From: Malacoraja senta
Taxonomy: Eukaryota
DNA length: 64,000 bases
Direction of reading: 5' to 3'
NCBI GenBank assembly: GCA_038087875.1
Contig: CM075989.1
Span: forward strand, 5,146,001-5,210,000
In this document: positions 1-51,597 of the stretch, one piece after another
How positions within the stretch are numbered: the first letter of the stretch is position 1
How the letters are laid out: every line of letters begins with the position of its first letter
Position numbers and translations under genes: made by a program
Notes under the pieces: model-generated
Told to the model about the DNA's origin: nothing
Databases searched by the model: none
Seen by the model: the letters and a program-made list of their open reading frames with translations, nothing else

Positions 1-1837
1 ATTTGCACAGAATTGTAAGCAAGATATAATGAAAATTAAATAAAAAGCTGACATTTTAAATAGAAGCCAATTTAACCCATGGAAATGCATGTATTTTTCT
101 CACTAGTAATTCAACACACCTTTGTTTTCGTTCTTACTACTATCAATTACTACTTTGAACTACGAAGCAATTTGTCTTAACACTATGCCACAAGGTTTGC
201 ATCTTCAACATATTCACCAAGTCAGCAACAAAGGTGGTTTGCTGCACTGTGGTCAATTAAACTACGGACAACACATACAGATCAGGAATTTCCTGCAACA
301 ATGATATAACAGTAATTAATTAACATATGGAAATCTCATTGAAAAAATTAGTGCAGTGAAAAATAACCTAATCATTATCATTAACAATAGATGCTTTTGA
401 ATAATTCCAAGAGGCGTATCTAATTTCCAATTTCATTTGATAATACCAACTGGAAATTTCACAACTGTAATCTGATAAATGGTGAACTAACCTTTAAAAC
501 TATGGCTAGATAGAGTGTCTAAGGCTACGCGTTTTTAATTAATTGGCTTCAAAACAAGAAATTGTCGTTTCGCAACATGGAACGTCTACAAAATCATCCG
601 ACATGCTGTTATCTCTCAAAAAAGACAAAATATAGATTAGAAATGGAAATGGAACTGTGTAACTAGACATAGGTACTTAGTGAAAATTAGGGTCAGACAT
701 ATTGGTCTAAACATTTGCCAGCAGACAAAAAACAGACAATGGAACAATATTTTCTGATCAGAGCTCTTTTTACAGCAGTGATCGTCTCAAGCTGTCATGG
801 TGTTCCAGGATGGAGCTTCCGAGGCCAATGGTACAATAAGGCCAAGTCACCTCTCAGCTCACCCTGTCTTGTGGGACATTGCAGGTTGAAGGTTCGGGTT
901 GATAGACATAAAATACTGGAGTAACTCAGCAGGTTAGGCTGCATCTCTGGAGAAAAGGAATAGGTGACATTTCGGGTCGAGACCATTCAGGTTGTTTGGC
1001 TTACACACGTGGAATAGTCAATGGCAAATGCAGATACTGGGCTTGGCAGCAGTGTATTTTACATAGCACTTAAATGAAGACTTCAGAAGATTCCGAAATG
1101 TTGTGGAAGACAGTAAAATGGTCGCTATTATCTTTTTTTTCTTTGCTCTTAGGAAACTGCAAGAAAATCTAGATTAAAGCAGAATAAGGTGTTCCTGACT
1201 GTAAAATATTGAATTCTCAAGCTCAGAGGACTAGACATTTTTACATAACAAAGACGAACAGCCACTGATGACTAATAGAACACTAGTGGATGAAACTAGT
1301 TTGTACGGTGGCAGTGATCCAGGGACAAATAGTAATACTAAATAAACAAAACAAAAAAAATTGGAGCTCAACCCACTGAGCATCAAAAGAAACTCATCTC
1401 TACAATTTTCAATCCTCTGTGAAACAGAACATTCTTTGCTTTGTGTTTTAATAAAAAATAATTCAAAGAGTAAACTGGTCGAAGGACACTTTCAAATCCA
1501 TTCCGCCAGCATTTATCTCAAGTTAACATTCCCGTAGTAAACATTTTAATTATGAATGTATCACAATGAAGAATATGCAGCAAAAGAGTTTTCAGGTCAG
1601 AGCACACAAAAGGATTTACATGATGGATGAAACCATTTGAGCTGTGATTGCAGTTAAAACATCACCTACACACGACTGTCATTATGAGCACAGCGTCTAC
1701 AAACTGCAGAGACAATCACAGTAAAATTTTACCCAGTAATTCAAAATATTTTGGATTTGAAATATCAAAAACAAGTCTTGTCATCACCTTCTCAAGGACA
1801 TCTCAGAACAGGCTTTAATGTTAGCCTTGTTTGCAAT

Positions 1838-2037
1838 NNNNNNNNNNNNNNNNNNNNNNNNNNNNNNNNNNNNNNNNNNNNNNNNNNNNNNNNNNNNNNN
1901 NNNNNNNNNNNNNNNNNNNNNNNNNNNNNNNNNNNNNNNNNNNNNNNNNNNNNNNNNNNNNNNNNNNNNNNNNNNNNNNNNNNNNNNNNNNNNNNNNNNN
2001 NNNNNNNNNNNNNNNNNNNNNNNNNNNNNNNNNNNNN
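1838..2037. other. Assembly gap (200 N)
   Basis: Run of exactly 200 N; placeholder-size gap, so contiguity across it is not guaranteed. Confidence 0.99.
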
Positions 2038-2185
2038 GATACCTCATGAAGACTAGGCGACCGCTGTGTCGATTTCCTGTGCTCATCTGGACCTCCCAGT
2101 TGCCAGTCATTGTAATTCCCCTTCCCTCTGCCTCCACCACTACCAGGTGTGACGAAATGTAAACTGGAGGAACAGCACCCCATAA

Positions 2186-2465
2186 TCCATAGTCATACAT
2201 GATAGGAGTAGAATTAGGCCATTCAGCCCATCTACTCCGCCATTCAATCATGGCTGATCAATCTCCCCCGCCTGACCCCATTCTCCTGCCTTCTCCCCAT
2301 CACCTCTGACATCTGTACTAATCAAGAGTCTGTGTATCTATGTCTATGCCTTAAAAATATCCACTGACTTGGCCTTCACAGCCTTCTGTGGCAAAGAATT
2401 CCAGATTCACCATCCTCTGATTGAATACATTTCCCCTCATCTCCTACCTAAAAGAAGTCCTTTAA
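2186..2465 (-). mobile_element. CR1-clade LINE (HER1-like) 3' fragment
   Basis: Reverse complement of the CR1 3' end (gaattaggccattcagcccatc...cattctcctgccttctcccc...gccttctgtggcaaagaattcc). Related fragments at ~18880-19325, 21390-21715, 23690-23920, 26315-26825, 31005-31190, 34085-34462, 46440-47000, 47700-48150, 50530-50940. Confidence 0.8.
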
Positions 2466-2950
2466 TTCTGAATTTCCCAGGGTATTCTATAAGCTAATGG
2501 CATGAACACAGTTCTCCAATATACGGTTAAGTGACACCCCCCCCCCCACTGCCCCTTTCTCACTTGCTATTTATCCGGGTCCTCTTATTACATGCCCATC
2601 TTCACATTATAACCCCCTTCACCCTGTTTACCCTCCTCCAGATACACACATCTCTCCCACTGGACCTCCTTTCACAAAACTGCTCACCTCTCGACTCTCT
2701 CTGTTGTTCCCAACTGTCACCATCCTTCATTCAGTTCCATTCTTCTCCGTCCTTTATCAGATTCCAGGTTCTGCACTCTGATGTTCTCCACTTGTCACCT
2801 CCCAGCCTCTGTTGCTATCTCCACCCTTCCATCCCCACCTGACTTATCTGCCAATCCCTCCTCACCTACATCCACTGTCACTAGCTCTTGCCCACCCTGG
2901 CTACTACCCCCTCTACTCTTAGTCTAGCGGAAGGGTTAAAAACCTAAAAC

Positions 2951-3680
2951 GTGAAATTTTTGAAATCTTTACAAAATTATTTAAAATTAAACTGATACCC
3001 AAAGCAGAATGGATTATCTTCGGAACAACGGAAGATAGTCCAGAACTAAATGTGTTCCAAAAGAAATTAATAGACTATGGGTTAATAACTGGAAAAAAGT
3101 TAATCCTAAAATTCTGGAAAAACGCTCCAATACCAACTATAAACATGTGGATTTCAAATATGTTCGAAACATTACACCTAGAAGAGATAAGACTCCTCCT
3201 GGCAGGTAAACCAGATCACTTCCACCTGACGTGGTCTGCATTTATAGAATTATTACAAGTATAGGGTGCAAAAGTACAACAAAAAAACTGAGGTCAGGTA
3301 AGGGGGGATGAAAGCTGGAGAGTTGGTATGTCCCATTTGCGTGATGCTTACAAAAAAGTACTTGTTTTTCTCTTTTCCCTCTTTCTCTTTTTTCTTCTTT
3401 TTTAGGGTCTATTTCTTAACTCTTTCTTTTTGTTTTTAATTTCTTTCTTATAGGGTCTTTGTTTTTTTTGTCACGTTTTTTACACTTTCACTTTTTTCCT
3501 TCACTTTCTTCTTTCTCTCAATCTCATCCTTTCCCTTTATTAGTGTAAAAAATAAACGGAGTACATTAATTGTAATAAGATATATGTGATGAGTACTAAT
3601 GTAATTGGTTTTAATGGGATGTACATCTAATAAATAAACATTTAAAAAAAATAATAATAAAAATAAAATTTTAAAAAAAA
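2951..3680 (+). mobile_element. L1-clade LINE 3' fragment (ORF2 C-terminus, T-rich 3' UTR, A-rich tail) inserted into an old Penelope-derived unit
   Basis: ORF 3052-3264 (...KKLILKFWK...PTINMWISNM...HLEEIR...TWSAFI) is L1 ORF2 C-terminal-like. AATAAA plus A-rich tail; ctaaaacgt repeated at both junctions. A near-identical copy lies on the minus strand at 37822-38575. Confidence 0.8.
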
Positions 3681-3892
3681 ACTAAAACGTCAACTGTCCA
3701 TTTCCCTCCACAGGAGCTGCCTGACAGTTGGGTTCCTCCAGCTGCTCTGTTTCTTTTAACTTCAGTATCTTGTACAGTATCTATTTCTCATCAGTTATCT
3801 GTCATAGGAAGTGATGAAAGAAATAGGAAAAATGTTAAATGAGAGCATTTTGTGCAAACAAGGGCAACTGAGCCAATCTTATACAGGTCGCT

Positions 3893-4116
3893 GTTTAAAA
3901 AGGAACTGCAGATGCCGGAAAATCGATGGTAGACAAAAATGCTGGAGAAACTCAGCGGGTGAGGCAGCATCTATGGAGCGAAGGAAATAGGCAACGTTTC
4001 GGGTCGAAATCCTTCTTCAGAGGACTGAAGAAGGGTTTCGACCCGAAACGTTGCCTATTTCCTTCGCTCCATAGATGCTGCCTCACCCGCTGAGTTTCTC
4101 CAGCATTTTTGTCTAA
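3893..4116. mobile_element. Penelope-derived short element, head-to-head inverted pair with hammerhead-like core
   Basis: The ~90-130 bp unit (gtttaa..aaggaactgcagatgc...gagaaactcagcgggtgaggcagcatctatggagcgaaggaaataggcaacgtttcgggtcgaaa..cttcttcag) is followed by its reverse complement. The same unit is the 3' tail of GIY-YIG-encoding fragments at 13069-13390 and 50965-51597. Confidence 0.75.
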
Positions 4117-5584
4117 CTTATATAGGTCTCTGTTTATTTGGAGCATCTGATATCCAGTACCTTTGATTCCATGCCATAATCAAATATTTAAAACATAAAA
4201 AAACTATCACTCGAGCTGTCCATTCTGTTATCCAAGTTTGTTTAAACACATCATCATGTATTCCATACTGTCACAATGAACAAATACAAGATTCCTTTGA
4301 TCGTAAGGCAGTATCCAAAGGGGGGTAGAATACCTAGCATGTGTTGCATCACTGATACAATTCAATTACTTTCAAATTAATGACAACAATCTACAATATA
4401 GCGAATATTTATATTTTTTTAGTAAACAGTTATTTTGCATTGTGCGTTTCAGAAAGCAAGAATAAAACTGTCCCCAAAGGTTGACTTAAAAGTAGGTGTC
4501 ATGAGAATTCCCCGATTTCTCCAACTTTCTCATAAGCTGTGCTTCTGATCAACTGTGAAGGGGCATGTTTCATTAAAGACAGCATATCTCTGACAATCCA
4601 AGTATCACCTCCTATAACTACTTTGACAGGAGATATCTTCAGTTTGGCAGGAAGAACTCAATCAGATAAGAGGGAAGACAAGTCAACTATCCTCACGAGT
4701 TGGAAGTAAACGAGAGACTGGATTTGACAGGTTTGGTACATGGATAGGACAGTTTGAGGGGTATGACCCAAATGCAGGCAGATGGAACTAGTGTAGCTGG
4801 GGCAAGTTGGGCCGAAGGGCCTGTTTTCACGCTGTATCACTCTATGATTCTATGACTGGTGAAGAAAGGAGGACAGAGATCCCAGGTTGGCAACTTATAA
4901 TTATGTCCTTGGCTCCACAGAAATGAATAAGGTCAAGTGCAATGGAATAGGTGATTATACAGTAAGACTTGGAATATCAGGCATATTGGCTTTAATGGAA
5001 CATGCTCCTTAACTAATTACTGGGAGCACAGTTAATGAGGATGTTGTAAAAATGGGGAAATTCTTCTGACAGTAAGACAACCTTTGAGGATGGTTCTCAT
5101 TTCCTGCTTTCTGAAAAGTCCAGTACAAAATAACTGTTCACAGCAAAGCTTACACTGACAAAAATACAATTAGTGCATCAAACTGACCAAAAGTACAGGG
5201 TGGCCTGTGGCCTGCGCCCTGCGCTTCTTCCTGCACGCAGAGGGAGATTGCCCTCGGCTCCCAGGGTGCTGGGAGGCTGTCGAGAGATGAGTGGGTGAGA
5301 TGATGGGGTGGAGCAGGTGGGCAATGACCGGGGCGGGAGGGGGGGGGTGGATGTCATGGTAGGGGGGTGGTGGTGGTGGTACAGAGGGGGAGATGTAAGA
5401 GTAGATGATGAGGTGGTGGGGGAAAGGCAAAAAGAGACGAAAGGTAAAGGAGTTGGGAAACTTAAGGGGCAGTGGGGGAGGGGAGGTGGAGGTGTGAGGG
5501 GGAAGAAGGGAGGTGGATGGGGGAGCAGGGGATGGAGAAAAGTAGGAGGAGGTTGTGCGAGAAGGAAGAGAGACAGAGGGGTGA

Positions 5585-5715
5585 GGATGGGGGGAGTGGG
5601 AGGATGGGAGGATGGGGGGGGAGTGGGAGGATGGGGGGGGAGTGGGAGGATGGGGGGGGAGTGGGAGGATGGGAGGGGGGAGTGGGAGGATGGGAGGGGG
5701 GTGGGAGGATGGGGA
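5585..5715. repeat. G-rich minisatellite (~19-bp GGATGGGGGGGGAGTGGGA units)
   Basis: Tandem degenerate units seen directly. Confidence 0.9.
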
Positions 5716-5766
5716 GGAGGGGGAAGGGGATGAGGAGGAGGGGGGGCGGGGGAGAGAGGGGGAGAG

Positions 5767-6125
5767 GGGAAGGGAAGAGGGAGAGGGAAGAGGGAAGAGG
5801 GAAGAGGGAAGAGGGAAGAGGGAAGAGGGAAGAGGGAAGAGGGAAGAGGGAAGAGGGAAGAGGGAAGAGGGAAGAGGGAAGAGGGAAGAGGGAAGAGGGA
5901 AGAGGGAAGAGGGAAGAGGGAAGAGGGAAGAGGGAAGAGGGAAGAGGGAAGAGGGAAGAGGGAAGAGGGAAGAGGGAAGAGGGAAGAGGGAAGAGGGAAG
6001 AGGGAAGAGGGAAGAGGGAAGAGGGAAGAGGGAAGAGGGAAGAGGGAAGAGGGAAGAGGGAAGAGGGAAGAGGGAAGAGGGAAGAGGGAAGAGGGAAGAG
6101 GGACGAGGGACGAGGGAAGAGGGAA
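5767..6125. repeat. (GGGAAGA)n polypurine tandem repeat, about 50 units
   Basis: Near-perfect 7-bp tandem array; explains the long low-complexity ORFs in the track. Confidence 0.98.
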
Positions 6126-6640
6126 AGGCCGGCCGGCCGGCGGGTGAAGGAGGAGGCCAGCGCCTCGCCCCTGGCCCCGAAGCTGCACGACCCGGTTCAC
6201 GCCCGCTCACCGATCCCCACATCATCGCTCCTTCCCCTCTCTCCCTCTCTCCCTCCTCCACCCTTTCTCTCCTTCCTCCCTTCCTTCCTCCCTCCCTCCC
6301 CTCACCTCACACCCCAACCGCCGCTCACCTCCTCTGCGACCGGCGCCTTCACCCGCGCTGCGCCTGCGTCTCCTCCCCCCCCCCGGCAACGCCCCGCCCC
6401 CTCGGGCCGGCCCGACCCCCATTGGCCAGCGCAACGCCTAGTCCCGCCCCTGGCGCCGCTCCCCATTGGCTGGGGCAGCTGCCCGTCCGACCGCCGCCGA
6501 GTTTCTTGGTATCCAACGTCACAGATGCAGGTCCCGCCCCCCCCGCCTCTCTCTCATTGGCCTGACCCGCCCAGTGACATCACCTGACGGACGGCGAGAA
6601 CAACCAATAGGAGGTGAGGTGCGGTCGCTGGAACTCAAGT
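6126..6640 (-). promoter_or_regulatory. CpG-island promoter with CCAAT and GC boxes and a probable leftward non-coding first exon (~6375 to 6329)
   Basis: CpG-dense sequence unique in this window. ATTGG at ~6421, ~6465, ~6556; CCAAT at ~6604; CCCGCCC GC boxes at ~6393, ~6443, ~6533; NRF1-like tgcgcctgcgt at ~6359-6369; minus-strand donor GAG|GTGAGC at 6329/6328. Confidence 0.7.
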
Positions 6641-6809
6641 GTATGTTTTGTATTGTGGATGCTGGAAAACTGGAACAGTCATGGTCATATAGTCATAGTC
6701 ATATAGTCATATTCTTACTTAGACTTAGTTCCTCCCAATGTTGAGCGCATTGGGCGGCAAGCTTTCACCATTCTATTCGGTTATGTGCAACTTCGTCCAC
6801 CATCAATAA

Positions 6810-8352
6810 AGGGGCTGTCCCATTGCGGCGACCTAATCTGTGAGTTTAGATAAGTTTGCCCTCGGCTCATGGTCGACATGAGGTCCGATGAGGTCACTGG
6901 AACTCTCCTTCATGCTCGAGGACTACAATGGCAAAAACAGGAGCACTGTTCAGCCTACCGCTTTGCTCCCGGCCGAGCTTAACACCTTTTATGCCCGGTT
7001 TGATGCAGACAACACAGTGCCCACCATGAGTCCACAGGTGTGCAGGGGGACTACCACACTGACCCTACAAACGGCAGACGTGAGGCGGTCCTTCAAAAAG
7101 GTCAATGACCCCAAAGCTCCAGGGCCGGATGTTATTCCAGGGCGGGCTCTCAGGGGGTGCGCTGATCAACTGGCAGAGGTGTTCACCAACATCTTCAACC
7201 TCTCCCTGAGTCAGTCTGTGGTTCCCACCCCCTTCAAAGCATCCATCATTGTTCCTGTTCCAAAGAAACCAATAATCTTCTGTTTAAATGACTACCATCC
7301 TGTCGCACTGACATCAGTCATCATGAAGTGCTTCGAGCGGCTAGTCAAAACTCACATCTGCTCCTCTCTCCCTGACACCTCGGACCCTCTTCAGTTTGCG
7401 TCCAGACCAAACAGGGCCAAGGACGATGCCATCGCTATGGCAACTCACACTGCGCTCACCCACCTGGACAAAGGGAAAACAAATGTGAGAATACTCGTCA
7501 TTGACTACAGCCCGGCATTCAACACTATCATTCCCTCAAAACTCATCCCCAAGCTCCTTGATCTTGGACTGGAGACCTCCATCTGCGGCTGGATATTCGA
7601 CTTCCTGACGGGCAGGCCCCAGGTGGTGAGAATTGGCAGCCACACCTCTTCCTCACAGATCCTCAACACAGGCACACCACAGGGCTGTGTGCTCAGTCCT
7701 CTCCTGTACTCCCTATTCACGCACGACTGTACTGCTAAGCACAGCTCTAACATCATCCTAAAGTTTGCTGACGACACGACCATCCTGGGCCTCATCACAG
7801 ACAACAATGAGAGGAGGTAAAGGAACTAAACAGCTGGTGCCAGGAAAATAACCTCTCTCTCAATGTCAGCAAAACTAAAGAGATGATCATGGACTAGAGG
7901 AGACAGCAGGAGAGTGAACACCTCCCCATCCACATCGGTGATGCTGAGGTTGAAACCGACCGGTTGGTAAACTGCCCGCTAAACTTTATTAGACTTCTTA
8001 AAAGTATCTCCCCTCCTTTCTCCCCCCCTTCTCTCCCCTTCTCTCCCCTTCTCTCCCCTTCTCTCCCCTTCTCCCCACCCCCCTCCACGCTCACTAAAGG
8101 ACTTACCGTACACTGTGGTAGCCGTCTTTTACCTTCCTCTTCATCGCGGGTGTGAATTTCAGACAGCGCTCGCCCGCTTTCCCTGGCCCCCGCCTTTGCG
8201 ATGTGTTTGTGTGCGGTCGGTCGATCCAGCTCGTGGTTTCAACGCGGACGGTCGATCCAGCTCGAGGTTTTCTAGGCGAGTGCCCTCGAGCTTGAAGGTC
8301 GAAGACACTCTTCTTAACTCGCAGATTAGGTCGCAGCAGTGGGACAGCCCCC
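6810..8352. mobile_element. PIF/Harbinger-type MITE carrying an internal Rex1 RT fragment
   Basis: TAA|AGGGGCTGTCCCATTGCGGCGACC...GGTCGCAGCAGTGGGACAGCCCCC|TAA; both arms are homologous to the uninterrupted copy at 40867-41720. Confidence 0.75.
6921..7955 (+). pseudogene. Rex1/Babar-clade LINE reverse transcriptase fragment
   Basis: ORF 6888-7820 contains KAPGPD, NDYHPVALTS..MKCFERLV, DPLQFA, IDYSPAFNTI, GTPQGCVLSPLLYSLFTHD and KFADD. Homology continues past a break (WCQENNLSLNVSKTKEMIMD). Confidence 0.92.
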
Positions 8353-13391: not shown

Positions 13392-15006
13392 CAGTGGCTT
13401 GCAAAAGTATTCATACCCCTTGAACTTTTCCACATTTTGTCACGTTACAACCACAAACGTAAATGTATTTTATTGGGATTTTATGTGATAGACCAACACA
13501 AAGTGGCGCATAATTGTGAAGTGGAAGGAAAATGATACATGGTTTTCACATTTTTTTACAAATAAAAAACTGAAAAGTGTTGCGTGCAAAAGTATTCAGC
13601 CCCCTTTACTCTGATACCCCTAAATAAAATCCAGTGCAACCAATTACCTTCAGAAGTCACCTAATTAGTAAATAGAGTCCACTTGTGTGTAATCTAATCT
13701 CAGTATAAATACAGCTGTTCTGTGAAGGCCTCAGAGGTTTGTTAGAGAACATTAGTGAACAAACAGCATCATGAAGCCCAAGGAACACACCAGACAGGTC
13801 AGGGATAAAGTTGTGGAGAAGTTTAAAGCAGGGTTAGGTTATAAAAAATATCCCATGCTTTGAACATCTCACGGAGCACTGTTCAATCCATCATCCGAAA
13901 ATGGAAAGAGCATGGCACAACTGCAAACCTACCAAAACATGGCCGTCCACCTAAACAGACAGGCCGGGCAAGGAGAGCATTGATCAGAGAAGCAGCCAAG
14001 AGGCCCATGGTAACTCTGGAGGAGCTGCAGAGATCCACAGCTCAGGTGGGAGAATCTGTCCATATAACAACTATTAGTCTGCACTCCACAAATCGGGCCT
14101 TTATGGAAGAGTGGCAAGAAGAAAGCCATTGTTGAAAAAAAGCCATAAGAAGTCCCGTTTGCAGTTTGCCACAAGCCATGTGGGGGACACAGCAAACATG
14201 TGGAGGAAGGTGCTCTGGTCAGATGAGACCAAAATTGAAGTTTTTGGCCTAAATGCAAAACGCTATGTGTGGCGGAAACCTAACACTGCACATCACCCTG
14301 AACACACCATCCCCACTGTGAAACATGGTGGTGGCAGCATCATGCTGTGGGGGTGCTTTTCTTCAGCAGGGACAGGGAAGCTGGTCAGAGTTGATGGGAA
14401 GATGGATGGAGCCAAATACAGGGCAATCTTGGAAGAAAACCTGTTAGAGTCTGCAAAAGACTTGAGACTGGGGCGGAGGTTCACCTTTCAGCAGGACAAC
14501 GACCCTAAACATACAGCTAGAGCTACAATGGAATGGTTTAGATCAAAGCATATTCATGTGTTAGAATGGCCCAGTCAAAGTCCAGACCTAAATCCAATTG
14601 AGAATCTCTGGCAAGACTTGAAAATTGCTGTTCACAGACGCTCTCCATCCAATCTGACTGAGCTTGAGCTATTTTGCAAAGAAGAATGGGCAAAAATTTC
14701 AGTCTCTAGATGTGCAAAGCTGGTAGAGACATACCCCAAAAGACTTGCAGCTGTAATTGCAGCGAAAGGTGGTTCTACAAAGTATTGACTCAGGGGGGCT
14801 GAATACTTTTGCACGTGACACTTTTCAGTTTTTTATTTGTAAAAAAATTTGAAAACCATGTATCATTTTCCTTCCACTTCACAATTATGCACCACTTTGT
14901 GTTGGTCTATCACATAAAATCCCAATAAAATACATTTACGTTTGTGGTTGTAACGTGACAAAATGTGGAAAAGTTCAAGGGGTATGAATACTTTTGCAAG
15001 CCACTG
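13392..15006 (+). mobile_element. Full-length Tc1-family DNA transposon (Passport-like, IR-DR type)
   Basis: TA|CAGTGGCTTGCAAAAGTATTCATACCCC...GGGGTATGAATACTTTTGCAAGCCACTG|TA; ~213-bp TIRs (13392-13604, ~14794-15006), each with an inner TGCAAAAGTATTCAGCCCCC direct repeat. Confidence 0.97.
13771..14788 (+). pseudogene. Tc1 DD34E transposase with two frameshifts
   Basis: ATG 13771 MKPKEHTRQVRDKVVEKFKAGLGYKK, frameshift ~13845, LNISRSTVQSIIRKWK...GRPPK, frameshift ~14080, ARRKPLL...WSDETK...FQQDNDPKH...SPDLNPIENLW...KGGSTKY*; 34 residues between the second D and E. Confidence 0.95.
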
Positions 15007-15063: not shown

Positions 15064-15751
15064 CAAGAGCGGAACTCGCTATCAAAACATGGAGGGGACG
15101 GGACACAATTTTTTGGCAGCCACGAGCGTATGCGCACACTCACACACACGCGCGCGCGAGGCTTCGGAGGCTCAATCCAGCGCTAAATGCAGCTCAACAA
15201 TGCCTGTCTCACCGGGTTAACTACAGCCCTGTCTGGACTGATGGGACACCAGCGCTGTTTCTCCGCGCTGGCCATATTTCCCGCAAGTCCAGGAAGGGTT
15301 GTAAGCTCACCTGGCGGGACAGGCAGAGTTAGCTGGGTTTAGCGCTGCTTCTCTGCCCTGGCCCGTCTGATTCCCGACCAAAGATCCTATAGCGGAGGAT
15401 GTTTGCTCCCGACCTCTCCGGCCACCCGTGGGAGGGGGGGGGCACTCGGGAGGGGACAGGACAACGCCGGAGACCCGGCCGGGATCGATCCTGCCTGCGG
15501 ATGAGGCGCAAGTCTGTGCCACGTCTCCCTCCTCCAATCATCGCGCTGAATCATGTCCTGCCCCCATTGCCTGCTGACCGACGTCTCTCTCGTCCAATCA
15601 GCGCCCTCGATCATCAGTCCCACCCCCACTGTGTCGCGGAAAGCGGGGATTTTAAAATCCGGATCACAAAAACTTGGGGGGGGATGTCCCCCACCTCTCA
15701 AAACATGGAGGGGACGTGTCCCCTCTGGCCCCCCCGGGTTTTCCGCCCCTG
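15064..15751. mobile_element. hAT-type non-autonomous element
   Basis: 8-bp TSD atgtcagc (15056-15063, 15752-15759); imperfect TIRs CAAGAGCGGAAC / TTTCCGCCCCTG; subterminal direct repeat tcaaaacatggaggggacg at both ends. Confidence 0.8.
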
Positions 15752-27658: not shown

Positions 27659-27967
27659 GTGCCTATACCACTATGGTGACTGCCTCCACTACCACCCAAC
27701 CTGTTCCACGGACCAACCACTCTCTTTTTAAAAATAACTTGCCCCTCTCACCTTAAAGATATTCGCTCTAGTCTTTGTCATTTTTATCCTGAGCAAAAAG
27801 GTTCTGATTGTCTACCTTATCTGTAGCTCTCATCATTCTATAAGAGTGGCACAGCTGGTAGAACCAAAGATTATATAGCGGAGCAAGATGCGCCACTCAG
27901 CGAAAAAAGCGTAGTATGACATGGGTGATTGTTGACGCCATTTTACCGGACTGCCTCGACTACCGTC

Positions 27968-28077
27968 ATGGCGTCTACATCTAAATCTTCATCTCACTGC
28001 TCTGCTATCAATTGCTCTAATCGTCAATGTAGACGACCCGACCTGTCATTCTTTAGGTTCCCCAATAAAAAGGAAAG
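27968..28077 (+). pseudogene. THAP zinc-finger first coding exon of a transposase (orphan exon 1)
   Basis: GTCATGG start, MASTSKSSSHCSAINCSNRQCRRPDLSFFRFPNKKE(R), then AG|GTGAGA donor. C-x4-C...FFRFP is the THAP N-terminal signature. Too short for the ORF track; no downstream exons recognised. Confidence 0.85.
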
Positions 28078-28451
28078 GTGAGAAAATATTATTATTTTCT
28101 GTCGATATTATTCTGAACTGAAAATGTTATTTTCTGTCTCCCATCAACGGCCATTCATTGGGAAACTAGGTTTGTCGGTACATTAGAAAGTTATTAGAAT
28201 TATGTTTTAATAGATCTTTACTTACCACAATAATAAAGTCAATGATTTTAACACTTCTGCACGTTTTGGGTTTTGTTCTTGTAAGGCAGGGGTCTCCAAA
28301 ATATGGCCCGCGGGACACATTAGGCCCACCAGGAGATTTTCCGAGCTCAGATTCGAGTCCGGGAACGCGGCGGCTGTTACTGGTTATGTCCCTCGAATTG
28401 TCGAGACATCACAAACAAAGATCACAAGCCCGCCGTGAAGAAGGGTGCAAT

Positions 28452-28481
28452 CAAAGATTATAGAACGCTCTATAATCTTTG
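28452..28481. mobile_element. 30-bp P-type TIR remnant (footprint 1)
   Basis: ggtgcaat|CAAAGATTATAGAACGCTCTATAATCTTTG|ggtgcaat; 8-bp TSD. Confidence 0.85.
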
Positions 28482-28524
28482 GGTGCAATGGTGGGGCGGG
28501 GGGTTCGGCGGCGGCGGTCGGAAT

Positions 28525-28560
28525 CAAAGATACTAGAGGAGCTCTGCTCTATAATCTTCG
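28525..28560. mobile_element. 36-bp P-type TIR remnant (footprint 2)
   Basis: gtcggaat|CAAAGATACTAGAGGAGCTCTGCTCTATAATCTTCG|gtcggaat; 8-bp TSD; first 18 nt identical to the right TIR of the enclosing element. Confidence 0.85.
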
Positions 28561-28599
28561 GTCGGAATGGGACGGCTGCTCATTATAACGTGCTCTCGT

Positions 28600-28848
28600 T
28601 CCACTCTCCCTCTCCCCCTTTTCCCTCTCCCCCTTCTCCCTCTCCCCCTTCTCCCTCTCCCCATTCTCCCTCTCCCACCTTCTCCCCCTCCCTCTCCCCC
28701 TTCTCCCTCTCCCCTCCCTCTTCCCCCTCCCTCTTCCCCTTCTCCCCCTCCCTCTCCCCCTTCTCCCTCTCCCCTCTCTTTTTCCCCTTCTCCTTCTTTC
28801 CCCTTCTCTCTTTCCCCTTCTCCCTCTCTCTCTCTCCTCTTCTCTCGA

Positions 28849-28882
<34 letters not shown>

Positions 28883-28955
28883 CCTTTTCTCCCTCCCTCC
28901 CTTCCCTCTCTCCCTCCCTTCCCTCTCTCCCTCCCTTCCCTCACTCCCTCCCTTA
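28600..28955. repeat. CT-rich low-complexity polypyrimidine tract
   Basis: Seen directly. Confidence 0.95.
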
Positions 28956-29022
28956 CCTCTGCGTGAGAGTTGGCAGCCCTGCTATGCCTTAGGTCCAAAA
29001 GAGGATAGAAACACACACACAA

Positions 29023-29053
<31 letters not shown>

Positions 29054-31687
29054 GATTGAAAGAAAAAGGTTGCTAAACAAATTAGAGGAAATCTGAAGAA
29101 AGAAACTAGAGAAATATTTCAAGTCAAGTCACTTTTATTTATATAGCACATTTAAAAAACAACTCTCGCACAACGCCACGCGCTAGGCGTACGCCGTCAA
29201 GACGCTGCGTACGACATCGAGACGCTGCGTACGCCCGTCGAGACGCTGCGTATGCCCTCAATGCGCCTGCGGGCCGACAGACCGTTGGCGCGCGGGATTT
29301 TCGGACAGTGCAAGATTTTTCAAGCGACCACGTTTGGTCGTGCTAGACGCATGCAATCGCATGCTGGTGGGACAGGCCCTTAACTTGCCTCTCACACACA
29401 GGCACACACAAACACACATTCATATACATATATATATAAGTTAAATTTAATTTTGTGCACAGTGTGTGTTAAAGCAATACAAGGGAAGCTGCACAATACA
29501 ATGCAAGGGAAACTACGCAAAGGTGGCGGCTGAGGAGGAAAGATGGGAGGGAAATGGGGGAACAGGGGGTAAACATTTACAATAAAATTAACTAAAATAA
29601 GTGAGGTGATAGATGCGCTATATCAAACACTGTTCCCTACAACACTGATTACGTCAAGGATGATAGAGCGGAGTGCACAGCGGGAGGCATACCGGAAGTT
29701 GCGTTTTGCATTAAAAAATGGCAGCCGTGACGTTCCGTTGCGTACTACACGTCAGTCCATTGGATTTTGGAGGAGTGGCCTATTTTGCTCCTCTAGTATC
29801 TTTGGGTAGAACTGCTGCCTCACAGCACTAGAGACCCAAGTTCGATTCTGGCCTTGTGTACTGTTTGTCTGGAGTTTGCACGTTGTCCTTGCGACCACTT
29901 GGGTTTCCTCCGGGTGCTCCGGTTTCCTCCCACATCCAAAAGACATGTTGGTTTGTAGGATAATTGACCTCTGAAAATTGCCTCTATGATGTAGGGAGTA
30001 GATGAGAAAGTGGGATAACATAGAACTAGTGTGATCAATGGTTAGTATGGACCTAGCAGGCCGAAGAGCCTGTTCCATGCTGTATCTCTAAACAAAACTA
30101 AAGAGTTCAGTTGACCTTTAGATTTTACATTCAATTCCTTCATATGGTACATTAAAAAAAATAGCATTGCTCTGTTTAATTTTGAACTCCTGATCTTTTA
30201 ACAAGTTCACATCCTTCAAGTTAAGACTTGTATTCAAAGTATGAAGTCGTGCATGCTAAGTCCTTTTACTTAAAAAAATCAATTGGACAAAGGAGCTTTC
30301 TTCACTTCCCACACCTTTCTTTGATATGACAAAGGTGAATGAAGCAATGAGCTAAAGGTGACCTTGAATCTTTCACAGGTTGCATTAGAAAGTTTGCGTT
30401 TTTAATTCTGATTATTTAGAGTGTGTTTAAGGTAGTCAGATTTGGCCGTGTAGAATGGGCAAGAGTTGGACTCTTGAGCAAAACACAAAGTGCTGGAAGA
30501 ACTCAGAGGGCCAGGCTGCACCTGCGGAGGGAATGGTCAGACAATGTTTGGGGTCGGTGACCATTTGTCAGAATGATTGTAGAAGAGGGGAGAAAGCTGG
30601 CAATCTAACCCCCCCCCCTTCCCCCCCACTCACCTGTATCCACCTATCACTTGTCAGGTTTTGTCTTGCCCTCACCTCTTTCTTCCAGCTTTCTCCCCTC
30701 TGTTGCAGTCAGCCTGATGAAGTGTCCCAACCTGAAATGTCATCTATCCATTCCCGCCACTGATTTTGACTGACCCCCCTTGACCCCGGTCCTTTGTGCT
30801 TTGTACAAGAGTGACTTGTAGTGTTGGACCATTGGAAGTGATGTGAACCAGTGGGGAGGTCAGTACCTGTGATGGCCCGGGCAGTGTCTCCCACTATCTG
30901 ATGCCACCTTCGTTCCTGGGCGTTTGAGTTGCTGAGCCAGGCCGTGATGTGACCAGTCAATATCCTCTCCAAGCAACACACCGATAGAGGTTCAAGACAG
31001 GTTCAAGCCACAGAAGGATGTGGAGGCCAAGTCAATGGATATTTGTAAGGTAGAGATAGGTAGATTCTTGATTAATACGGGTATCAGGGGTTATGGGGAG
31101 AAGGCAGGAGAATGGGTTTAAGAGGGAGAGATAGATCAGCCGTGATTGAATGGCGGAGTAGACCTAATTCTGCTCCTATCTTTTATGAACTTGTGAAGAC
31201 AGAATTCGGCAACATAGCAAATCTCCTCAATCATCTGAGGAAAGTCCTGCCATTAACAGCATATTATAGACATAAAGAAGCTTAATCTGATTTTAACTGC
31301 CTCTTAACTGTCAACCGGTCCTAACCAGTCAGAGAAATTTCCTTTCTTCCATCCATCCTCCTCCTCCATTTCCTTCGACACTTAACCAACTTGTTTTTCT
31401 AGTTCCCAGTTGTGCTGAAGGATCATAGACCGGAAACATTATCTGTTTCTCTTCCCACAGATGTTGTCTGACCTTTGCTGAGTGTTTATAGTGGTTTCTG
31501 TTTGAAATGGCAGGTTAATATTTCGGGTGAGGAACCGGATCCAAATGGACTAATGGAGGCTGAATAAGAATATTAACAGACATGAACATCTCGGGGACAT
31601 TCACCAGGATCACAGACACTGAATAAATGCAAGCTGGTTTTGACATAGACGAGAAAAGGTTTAATAGGGTTAATTTCCTAATATTTT

Positions 31688-49220: not shown

Positions 49221-50964
49221 GAGAGCCTTGTTTGCATGTCCAAAATGGGCGTAAAATGCATTGTTCATCCGGTGAGGATGCCTCGTTACCAAAGAGTAAT
49301 ATTTTTGGAAATATTATAGATAAGGAAGTGCTGTGGATGCCGTTGGTTGACAATTACATGCCTCGAATACACAAAAAAAACAATCCCTGAACATGTACAG
49401 AGTGGCACGGTGATGCAGCGCTAGAGTTGCTGCCATTCAGCACCAGGGACCCAGGTTCAATCCTGACGACAGGTGCTGTCTGTACGGAGTTTGTACGTTC
49501 TCCCCATGATCACATGGGTTTCCCCTGGGTGTTCCTGTTTCTTCCCACACTCAAAATATGTACAGGTTGGTTGGTTAATTGGCTTTGGTAAAAATTGTAA
49601 ATTGACCCTCGTGGAGGATAATGTATGGGATAGAGTATGGGAATCGCTGGTCAGTGCAACTCGGTGGGCCGAAGGGCCTGTTTCCGCGGTGTTTCTCTAA
49701 ACTAAACGAAACTAAACAAAGTACACTCCAGTAAATATTGTTAACAACTACTAAATCGAGAGCCAACTGCAACATTCAACTACAAGTTTAATCCAATTTC
49801 CATTTTGAATTATATTTAAACTTCCAATTTGTTTCCAACTTCAGTTGCAAATTCATTTTAATTTCAATTTCAAAACTAAATACAAATTTCCATTTCAAAT
49901 GTCATTGTTATTGAATTCTCTATCTGGACAGCCAGGCTACTTGGAGACACCAGTGAGTGCTGTGGCATAGATTTATGAGAAAGTCTGGACTGAGAACTGA
50001 GTGGAGACTGTTGGAGAACCTTATGGGCGACAGGTGTGGGGTCGCGAACCATTGTTGCCATTTAGCATCGTTGCGCCCTCGCAAGGACAGATCTTTCTCT
50101 TTTACCTATAATTATCATAATGAACAGGTAAGTCTTGCTGTTGCCACCCTTTGGCAGCATGTTAGGGTAATAATTTGCTCCACGCTGGGGTTAAGTGGTC
50201 AGGAGGCAGGCCTGGATTGATGCATCTCAGCCTGTTACTGAAGACGCAGCTACACTGGGGAAATAAACACAGTAAGAACAGAGACACTTCATGACACTGC
50301 AGGTTAGGCGATGAGACACACAGATTATGAACTTTTGTTTCCCATTCTCCACTTATTTACTTGACGCATTGATTAATTAAATAACCCTCCATGTTATTAC
50401 ACAAGATTCTGTGTTTAAAAAAAAAAGACATATTTTTATTGTGGTAATTGTATATCAGTAACTTTGACAATAATTCATTGATCTGGTTATTAAATATAAG
50501 AAAATGTTGCAGACAATTAGAGCCATTGTCACATGGCATGGAAACCCTTCGGCACAACTATTCCACGCCGACCAATTGAGCTGGTCCCATTTGTCCACAT
50601 TTGGCTCTTATGCGTCTAAACCTTTCCTATCCATGTATCCAATTGACATTTATACACCGTGATAGTACCTGGCTCAACTACCTCTTCTGGCAGCTTGCTC
50701 CATTTACCTACCACCCTCTGAGTGAAAAAGTTGCCCCTCAGGTTCGTGTGAAATCTTGCCCCTCTCACCTTAGGCCTATGCTCTCAGGTTTTTGATTCTC
50801 CTGCCCTGGATAGGACTCTGTGCAGTTACCAATCAATACCCCTCATGATTTTATACACCTTTATAAATAAGATCATCCTTCAGCTTTCTGTGCTCCAAGG
50901 AATAAAGTCCTAGTCTGCCCAAACTCTCCCCATAGCTCAGACCTTCAAGATCCCACTGAAAAAA

Positions 50965-51597
50965 ACCCCATCCCCTCCCCAGGTACTTTCCCCTGCAACT
51001 GCAGGAGATGCAACACCTGTTCCTTTACCTCCCCCCTCGACTCCATCCAAGGACCCCGACACTTTTCAGGTGAGGCAGAGGTTCACTCGCACCTCCTCCA
51101 ACCTCATCTACTGTATCCGCTGTTCCAGGTGTCAACTCTTGTACATCGGCGAGACCAAGCGCCAGCTCAGCGATCGTTTCTCCGAACACCTCCACTCAGT
51201 CCGCCTAAACCTACCTGATCTCCCGGTTGCTCAACACTTTAACTCCCCTTCCCATTCCCAATCTGACCTTTCTGTCCTGGGCCTCCTCCATTGTCAGAGT
51301 GAGGCCCAGCACAAATTGGATGAACAGCACCTCATATTTTGCTTGGGTAGCTTACACCCCAGCGGTATGAATATTGACTTCTCTAACTTCAAATAGCCCT
51401 TGCTTTTCCTCTCTCTCCATCCCCTCCCCCTTCCCAGTTCTCCCACCAGTCTTACTGTCTCCGACTACATTCTATCTCTGTCCCGCCCACTCCCCTGATA
51501 TCAGTCTGAAGAAGGATCGCGACCCGAAAAATCAATCAATCCTTCTGTCCTGAGATGCTGCCTGTCCCGCTGAGTTACTCCAGCATTTTGTGTCTCC
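50965..51597 (+). mobile_element. Penelope-like (Neptune-type) element 3' part: Cys-rich linker + GIY-YIG endonuclease + tail
   Basis: PGTFPCNCRRCNTC, then ORF 51070-51396 SSNLIYCIRCSRCQLLYIGETKRQLSDRFSEH...VAQHFN...GMN; inserted in a CR1 fragment (ctcagacc.tcaag duplicated at the flanks). Confidence 0.92.

Follow-up and report, generated by a model that had tools for sequence, protein, structure and literature searches.

The closest described relatives of the element reported here are the P element of Drosophila melanogaster and its vertebrate homologues. According to passages of PMC7776569, the Drosophila enzyme cleaves 17 bp inside the terminal inverted repeat (TIR), and passages of PMC5466332 give the donor site before repair as target site duplication (TSD) + 17 nucleotides (nt) + 17 nt + TSD. 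In this work, a 64,000-nt stretch of the Malacoraja senta genome (GenBank assembly GCA_038087875.1, contig CM075989.1, positions 5,146,001 to 5,210,000 of the forward strand), called the window throughout, was analyzed. The element at window positions 27865-29804 had been assigned to the P superfamily from its letters alone, in what we call the sequence-only reading. The P family is real, and this element is one of its unremarkable deleted members: it is an internally deleted, non-autonomous copy from which exons 2 and 3 of the transposase gene are gone. In all features that the analysis could address, the family agrees with the P superfamily. The window copy very probably derives from a young P family whose three-exon THAP-P transposase moved it by GTP-dependent cut-and-paste with a long staggered cut.

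Vertebrate P elements are already known from zebrafish. Passages of PMC7776569 and bioRxiv 2024.03.22.586318 describe Pdre as a vertebrate P-like element with 8-bp TSDs and internally deleted copies, and attribute to Pdre2 TIRs of 13 bp and, at a distance from them, subterminal repeats of 12 bp, with some 50 homologous sequences and a single full-length gene; zebrafish THAP9 (zfTHAP9) excised without transposing. Human THAP9, as described in part of PMC7776569, is homologous to the P transposase over its full length and is accompanied neither by TIRs nor by deleted copies. The passages on vertebrate homologues in these two sources map no cut at native vertebrate ends. In the titles and abstract beginnings found, with most subscription journals outside coverage, P elements in cartilaginous fishes and genome-wide P scars were undescribed, and a term search of the THAP9 survey PMC10824691 returned no passage on sharks or fishes. 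The family may be catalogued already in Repbase or Dfam, and supplementary repeat tables of genome papers may contain P elements as well. What is new is the combination of intact-looking copies with a record of scars, each consisting of two joined TIR tips, pointing to a cut of variable length that is set by sequence.

The family shares with the Drosophila P element (PDB 6P5A and 6PE2) its 8-bp TSD, CA...TG ends, TIR of about 31 bp, the order THAP, helix-turn-helix (HTH), RNase H and GTP-binding domain, three catalytic acids, seven of eight GTP-site residues, and long TIR remnants at donor sites. The scars have the form of the Drosophila donor site, but their limit tracks an inner motif and not a fixed distance; 17 nt is the sole value reported for Drosophila, whereas tip length varies in the family studied here and the scar limit moves along with it. 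The Drosophila element has four open reading frames (ORFs) in 2.9 kb, whereas this family has three exons, a GC-AG intron 2, a protein of 882 amino acids and a length of 5 to 9 kb with nested inserts. Compared with zebrafish Pdre, it has TIRs of 32 to 34 bp, thousands of ends and several near-identical full copies at different sites. Invertebrate P-type transposases (Batillaria and Elysia) have the same Pfam set as the transposase studied here.

Structure of the window element

The element is flanked by a perfect 8-bp TSD, GGTAGAAC, at 27857-27864 and 29805-29812 (8 of 8 matches), as the sequence-only reading had stated, and its termini are CA...TG. The left TIR (27865-27898, plus strand) measures 34 bp and consists of a 19-nt outer tip ending in GAG followed by the inner motif CAAGAT, whereas the right TIR (29773-29804, minus strand) measures 32 bp and has a 17-nt outer tip, also ending in GAG. 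Thus, the TIRs are imperfect, the left tip being 2 bases longer than the right and different in sequence as well; in both, an inner CAA-AT motif follows the outer tip. The length of about 31 bp given previously was approximately right, but that figure hid the asymmetry of the tips. The left outer tip recurs in other copies in the genome.

Transposase exon 1 (27968-28077, plus strand, 110 nt) encodes the first half of a THAP zinc finger. It is free of stops, has G at positions -3 and +4 and is followed by the donor GTGAGA, which bears out the earlier description of a THAP exon with a Kozak-like start and a splice donor; it differs by 4 bases from the intact copy L056. Downstream lies the 5' part of intron 1 (28078-29011, plus strand), which is common to full-length copies and contains nested remnants and a CT-rich tract. 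At the internal deletion junction (29011/29012), approximately 5.9 kb of L056 is absent (L056 bases ∼1308-7220, including exons 2 and 3), and the remaining 3' part (29012-29804, plus strand) is noncoding, with an extra insert at 29160-29320 that is unmatched in L056.

The element interrupts a multicopy repeat resembling a short interspersed nuclear element (SINE), which we take to be a V-SINE, a class with a tRNA-derived head and a conserved V domain. Its 5' part lies at approximately 27844-27864, so that the left TSD falls within the SINE head, and its 3' part lies at 29805-30100 (plus strand). Uninterrupted SINE copies, in the window and at other loci, span the insertion site with a single copy of the TSD sequence, in agreement with the claim that the host repeat rejoins exactly. 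The other SINE copies in the window are 69 to 80% identical to the host SINE, whereas the best copies of the P family recovered by end searches show 92 to 96% identity. The SINE family is therefore the older of the two, and the earlier proposal that the P family was mobile after SINE amplification is supported.

Full-length relatives and their transposase

Genome searches with the left 416 bases and the right 355 bases of the element gave 927 and 1,628 candidates, respectively, of which 40 were scored in each case. An exact TIR-end pattern had at least 3,455 matches in the genome, and the reversed-pattern control had 0. Outer tips were 17, 18, 19 and, once, 20 nt long among 100 ends listed. 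A search with the PF21787 profile gave 300 candidates, and all 150 of those scored exceeded the cut-off; in 13 of the 40 left-end matches, a PF21787 match lay 1.8 to 3.6 kb downstream on the same strand. A domesticated THAP9 gene would be a single copy without TIRs or a TSD, and the family does not fit this description, given the 150 scored hits over the cut-off and the presence of TIRs and TSDs.

Twenty stretches, picked for long ORFs or for the link between a left end and PF21787, were fetched, and 11 of them contain both ends. The TSD was perfect in seven of these long copies, which measure 5.0 to 8.6 kb, matched at 6 of 8 positions in one and at 2 of 8 in three. Among shorter paired elements (375 to 1,796 bp), 14 of 19 had a perfect TSD. 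Counting TIR-bounded copies with 8-bp TSDs across the genome had been proposed as a check, and its outcome favors the assignment.

Gene prediction divides the full copies into three exons, intron 1 being of the GT-AG and intron 2 of the GC-AG type. Open frames were scored on the 16 copies, picked for long ORFs, that contain all anchor sites (4 of the 20 fetched are without one), and three were open: L056 and L059 (882 amino acids each) and L060 (888 amino acids). Judged by sequence, the ends, the frame and the splice sites of L056 are all intact, and its TSD differs from those of its close kin. Intron-containing copies with open frames thus exist, in line with the expectation of autonomous copies in the sequence-only reading.

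The window exon 1 by itself matched THAP below the cut-off (E value, 0.0034; 18.5 bits versus 23.9; profile positions 1-28), and exon 2 of the full copies matched it above the cut-off (41.2 bits; profile positions 30-87). Exon 3 exceeded the cut-offs for PF12017, PF21787, PF21788 and PF21789, and no hAT, Harbinger or Kolobok family was found at an E value of ≤0.1 in exon 2 or exon 3 in Pfam, so that the domain check suggested earlier came out in favor of a P transposase. The sole PDB match of exon 3 was the Drosophila P transposase (E value, 2.4e-44). With the residue list taken from PMC7776569 and positions counted along the 6P5A alignment, the catalytic residues D230, D303 and E531 are identical in L056, as are seven of the eight GTP-site residues (K385, V401, S409, F443, D444, N447 and D528), K400 being replaced by R. 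With these residues kept, GTP may serve as the cofactor. The HTH, the split RNase H fold with D, D and E, and the GTP-binding insertion domain are thus present in full-length relatives, whereas the window copy has lost them by deletion.

Among database proteins that bear a name, transposases of the molluscs Batillaria and Elysia come closest, with 35 to 42% identity to exon 3. In a quick tree of 43 rows, L056 and six unnamed proteins (56 to 81% identity) formed a supported group (Shimodaira-Hasegawa-like approximate likelihood ratio test [SH-aLRT], 100), with the molluscs outside it. The name THAP9 did not occur among the 120 best database matches, most of which are without names, ten protein clusters yielded no informative names, and in a protein atlas, only P/THAP9 clusters were retrieved, with arthropods dominant. 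The start of exon 3 (L056:3030-3065) has an EHSY motif, which presumably resembles the HCF-1 binding motif of THAP proteins.

The gene model was compared with four runs (X1, X4, X6 and X7), one from each of four studies of other organisms and drawn from 14 runs whose contigs were guessed to be RNA, by alignment to L056:2200-4200, which extends from exon 2 through intron 2 into the beginning of exon 3. All four showed a 459-base skip, the predicted length of intron 2; the joint can fall on the GC-AG ends in three runs and lies three bases earlier in X1. The join to exon 1 rests on loose ends, which in X6 and X7 (two of the four runs) carry the end of exon 1 immediately before exon 2, and no exon 1 end was among the loose ends listed for X4. 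The splice from 28077, for which a search of reads had been proposed, is therefore seen in part of these relatives. The contig joins support the gene model in relatives, and not expression in the genome of the window. DNA runs of four further organisms contain 27 to 58% of the sampled words.

Age and present activity of the family

Exon 3 diverged by 0.22% between L056 and L059 and by 0.31% between L056 and L064, and these three copies, 0.2 to 0.35% apart, have different TSDs. Across 15 copies, five rearranged, truncated or divergent copies being excluded, the median exon 3 distance was 1.9%, and no two of them at different sites were identical. In every close pair, synonymous differences per site exceeded non-synonymous ones, an excess that CpG decay may inflate.

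These data leave the balance slightly on the side of a family that is already dead, its open frames being young relics and the transcripts by-products or the output of a domesticated copy. Such a state would be compatible with the transposase-driven origin proposed for the window element and concerns present activity alone. It accords with the broken frames of 13 of the 16 scored copies, with the median distance and the absence of identical pairs just described, and with the slow evolution of chondrichthyan genomes reported in passages of PMC5381603. It accords less well with the small distances and different TSDs of L056, L059 and L064, with the intact ends, frame and splice sites of L056, and with the synonymous excess, subject to the same CpG caveat. 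We put forward more tentatively, as a possibility, a vertebrate P transposon that is still alive and retains full competence: its enzyme, that of L056, would carry out both excision and integration of its own ends by a sequence-placed cut, overhangs of 17 to 20 nt would coexist in one genome, and the scars would be a germline record of the repair of long 3' overhangs. If so, the enzyme would accomplish both steps, unlike zebrafish THAP9 in the study cited above; human THAP9, for its part, has no native element.

Tip-plus-tip sites as likely excision footprints

Exact patterns located 975 sites in the genome made up of a head-to-head pair of TIR tips and nothing else. Both tips are of the AC type at 427 of these sites, of the C type at 546 and of the TA type at 2, and the controls gave 0. 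The patterns require exact outer arms and leave mixed-tip and decayed scars uncounted. Fifty sites, taken from the first listed on contig C1, were read in two sets of 35 and 15. Perfect TSDs flanked 19 of the 35 and 10 of the 15, and at least 7 of 8 positions matched in 28 and 13, respectively (41 of 50). Four more of the 35 matched at 8 of 9 positions in a 9-bp register, and none of the 35 matched fully in a 7-bp register. When flanks were cross-paired as a control, 7 of 8 was reached in 34 of 1,190 pairs, partly through sites with shared flanks. The 50 scars represent 33 independent flank classes, 29 of which have a TSD. The TSDs prefer G-T at the first two places and A-C at the last two (20 distinct TSDs, both strands).

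The arms of these scars end at a defined place. Among approximately 854 short-tip arms, 343 reach TIR base 18, 24 stop at base 17 with another base after it, 3 reach base 19 and none reaches base 20. Among the long-tip arms, 115 end in GAGC followed by T, at base 19-20. Full scars of 19+19 (38 bp) and 18+19 (37 bp) nt are present; the listed scars range from 26 to 40 bp, with varied junctions, some of them with inserts, and forms of 28, 32 and 34 bp repeat. Many junctions lie on short palindromes or microhomology (GC or AGCT). The tip-plus-tip sites likely represent footprints of excision by a staggered cut of the P type, whose place depends on sequence and not on distance, and the limits read from the scars, 17-18 nt for short tips and 19-20 nt for long tips, likely mark staggered cleavage.

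The window element itself carries two such footprints in intron 1, both overlooked in the sequence-only reading. One, at 28452-28481, is a 30-bp tip-plus-tip unit with its own perfect 8-bp TSD, GGTGCAAT, and related forms occupy the same place in many copies of the family. The other, at 28525-28560, measures 36 bp (a 17-nt tip plus a 19-nt tip), has its own perfect 8-bp TSD, GTCGGAAT, and is also present in intron 1 of full-length copies. Since full copies contain scars both within intron 1 and close to their right end, the family appears to have jumped into itself and out again, with descendants inheriting the scars.

The same units could be read as tiny MITEs (miniature transposable elements with inverted repeats) that transposed as such, and 8-bp TSDs, terminal inverted arms and the recurring 28-, 32- and 34-bp forms would be in keeping with MITEs. 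We consider this improbable: the junctions vary widely among the listed sites (26 to 40 bp, with inserts), some of the recurring forms were carried along within larger repeats, and the same inner-motif stop in short-tip and long-tip families would be unexpected. The units are also without the inner half of the TIR, which HTH contacts in the Drosophila structure, according to passages of PMC7776569. Still less probable is an origin that required no transposase, in which replication or the repair of hairpins deleted the DNA between inverted repeats. The many junctions on short palindromes would suit such deletions, but deeper small palindromes exist within the search range, and yet no short-tip arm stands at base 20, against 343 at base 18; moreover, the limit shifts by 2 bases where the tip is 2 bases longer.

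That the element is a hAT, Kolobok or Harbinger transposon with a separately acquired THAP domain, to which the 8-bp TSD (hAT also generates 8-bp TSDs) and the end motifs in intron 1 that we take to be hAT-like might have pointed, is refuted by an exon 3 over the cut-off for P families alone and by its single PDB match, to a P transposase.

Proposed mechanism

Under transposition by the three-exon THAP-P enzyme, the THAP domain and HTH would bind the subterminal region and the inner TIR. The transposase would then cut one strand at the very end of the element and its partner immediately past the inner GAG(C). Host DNA would be left with 3' overhangs, measuring 17-18 nt for short tips and up to 19-20 nt for long tips. 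Host end joining of these overhangs, often on 1 to 4 bases of microhomology and sometimes with templated inserts, would produce the 26- to 40-bp scars between the old TSDs. Integration at staggered positions 8 bp apart would generate the new TSD, and the window copy, having lost exons 2 and 3, would have moved in trans into the older SINE. Since the limit tracks the motif irrespective of distance, the enzyme likely positions the inner cut by recognizing the inner TIR, the outer tip likely being a loop in which different lengths are tolerated.

More speculatively, the inner CAAGAT repeats the terminal CAAAGAT, so that the single-stranded end could fold back on the other strand. In the Drosophila complex, as described in passages of PMC7776569, the transferred strand loops out, with a disordered stretch, and returns to pair with the opposite strand in its 5' part. 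Both the CAAAGAT/CAAGAT repeat and the variation in tip length would be consistent with this fold-back hypothesis.

Several observations weigh against the cut-and-paste origin and the sequence-placed cut proposed here. Many of the transposase matches are duplicated and not independent, 9 of the 20 fetched stretches having one common left flank beside a 30-bp satellite, as duplicates of one insertion. Even among copies selected for long ORFs, just 3 of 16 are open, and the first donor of L059 is GA. The run contigs come from other organisms and their RNA nature is guessed, and the loose ends before exon 2 in X1 are a different sequence. Regarding the scars, the limit is exceeded by 10 long-tip arms, which include the TIR base that follows (five add A, and two reach CAAG). 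The cut position is deduced from repair products and carries a one-base ambiguity, GAG joined to CTC being the palindrome GAGCTC. Some scars are copied inside other repeats, 15 of the 35 falling in 3 flank classes, and the scar patterns themselves fix the bases on whose conservation the fold-back relies.

The 17-nt staggered cut has been described from the Drosophila enzyme, and the scars would be evidence from within a genome for the same cut by a vertebrate P element. Their limit suggests that the inner TIR determines the offset, which can exceed 17 nt. With this family, an enzyme that looks intact is available in nature along with the ends that match it, and the family could give a new gene-transfer tool together with about 1,000 natural end-joining products.

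Other features of the window and the family

The subterminal 8-mer GCCATTTT at 27937-27944 (plus strand) is mirrored by its reverse complement, AAAATGGC, at 29715-29722 (plus strand), and both are candidate sites for YY1 or THAP. Motifs near both ends had been noted previously and are present there, but they are not confined to the ends, as two further 8-mers of this kind lie elsewhere in the window. A degenerate single 19-nt TIR tip at 29655-29673 (plus strand), near the right end, is found in other copies too. A separate 27-bp footprint of the same superfamily (a 19-nt tip plus 8 nt; TSD, 7 of 8) lies at 15379-15405. The insert at 29160-29381 has three 20-bp direct repeats and an end motif that we assume to be of the Harbinger TIR type. 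The intron 1 segment at 28288-28981 is also found in full-length copies, and its start and end motifs presumably resemble hAT-type TIRs.

In copies L056-L061, L065 and L068-L070, the subterminal scar near the right end has a junction with CTCCG present once or in two or three tandem units, a pattern similar to what templated insertion in alternative end joining, or subsequent slippage, would leave. Single scars were also amplified as passengers of other repeats (L080, L083, L086, L093, L095, L099, L101, L105 and L110; L146, L148, L150, L156 and L159).

No host gene was found around the element among 82 of the 102 window ORFs of at least 95 amino acids in a Pfam scan, which short exons would escape. 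The scan matched nothing but a reverse transcriptase ORF (6882-7817), a frameshifted Tc1-type transposase (13845-14785) and, weakly, GIY-YIG (50914-51393).

Satellite-rich duplicated blocks on short contigs multiplied one P insertion (L061-L063 and L068-L073; G000 contigs C3243, C1957, C4000 and others), and 10 of 15 right-end loci also have one flank in common. One duplicated block (L167:1395-2330) contains a 312-amino-acid ORF for a rhodopsin-family G protein-coupled receptor (GPCR) (PF00001; E value, 2e-20). Carriage of the shared-flank copies in a virus-like or Maverick-like unit was unsupported, the 12 neighboring stretches holding satellites, ORFs like those of long interspersed nuclear elements, and the GPCR (the Pfam scan covering the GPCR ORF only).

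A second P subfamily is represented by L075 (G000:C5:8606258-8616257), approximately 86% identical in the transposase region; the same ends were not found within its fetched stretch. Finally, a dense cluster of P-type MITEs of 375 to 430 bp, whose two tips measure 18 and 19 nt and whose TSDs are 8 bp long, was observed at 4.7 to 8.9 Mb of contig C1 (L118-L145; G000:C1).

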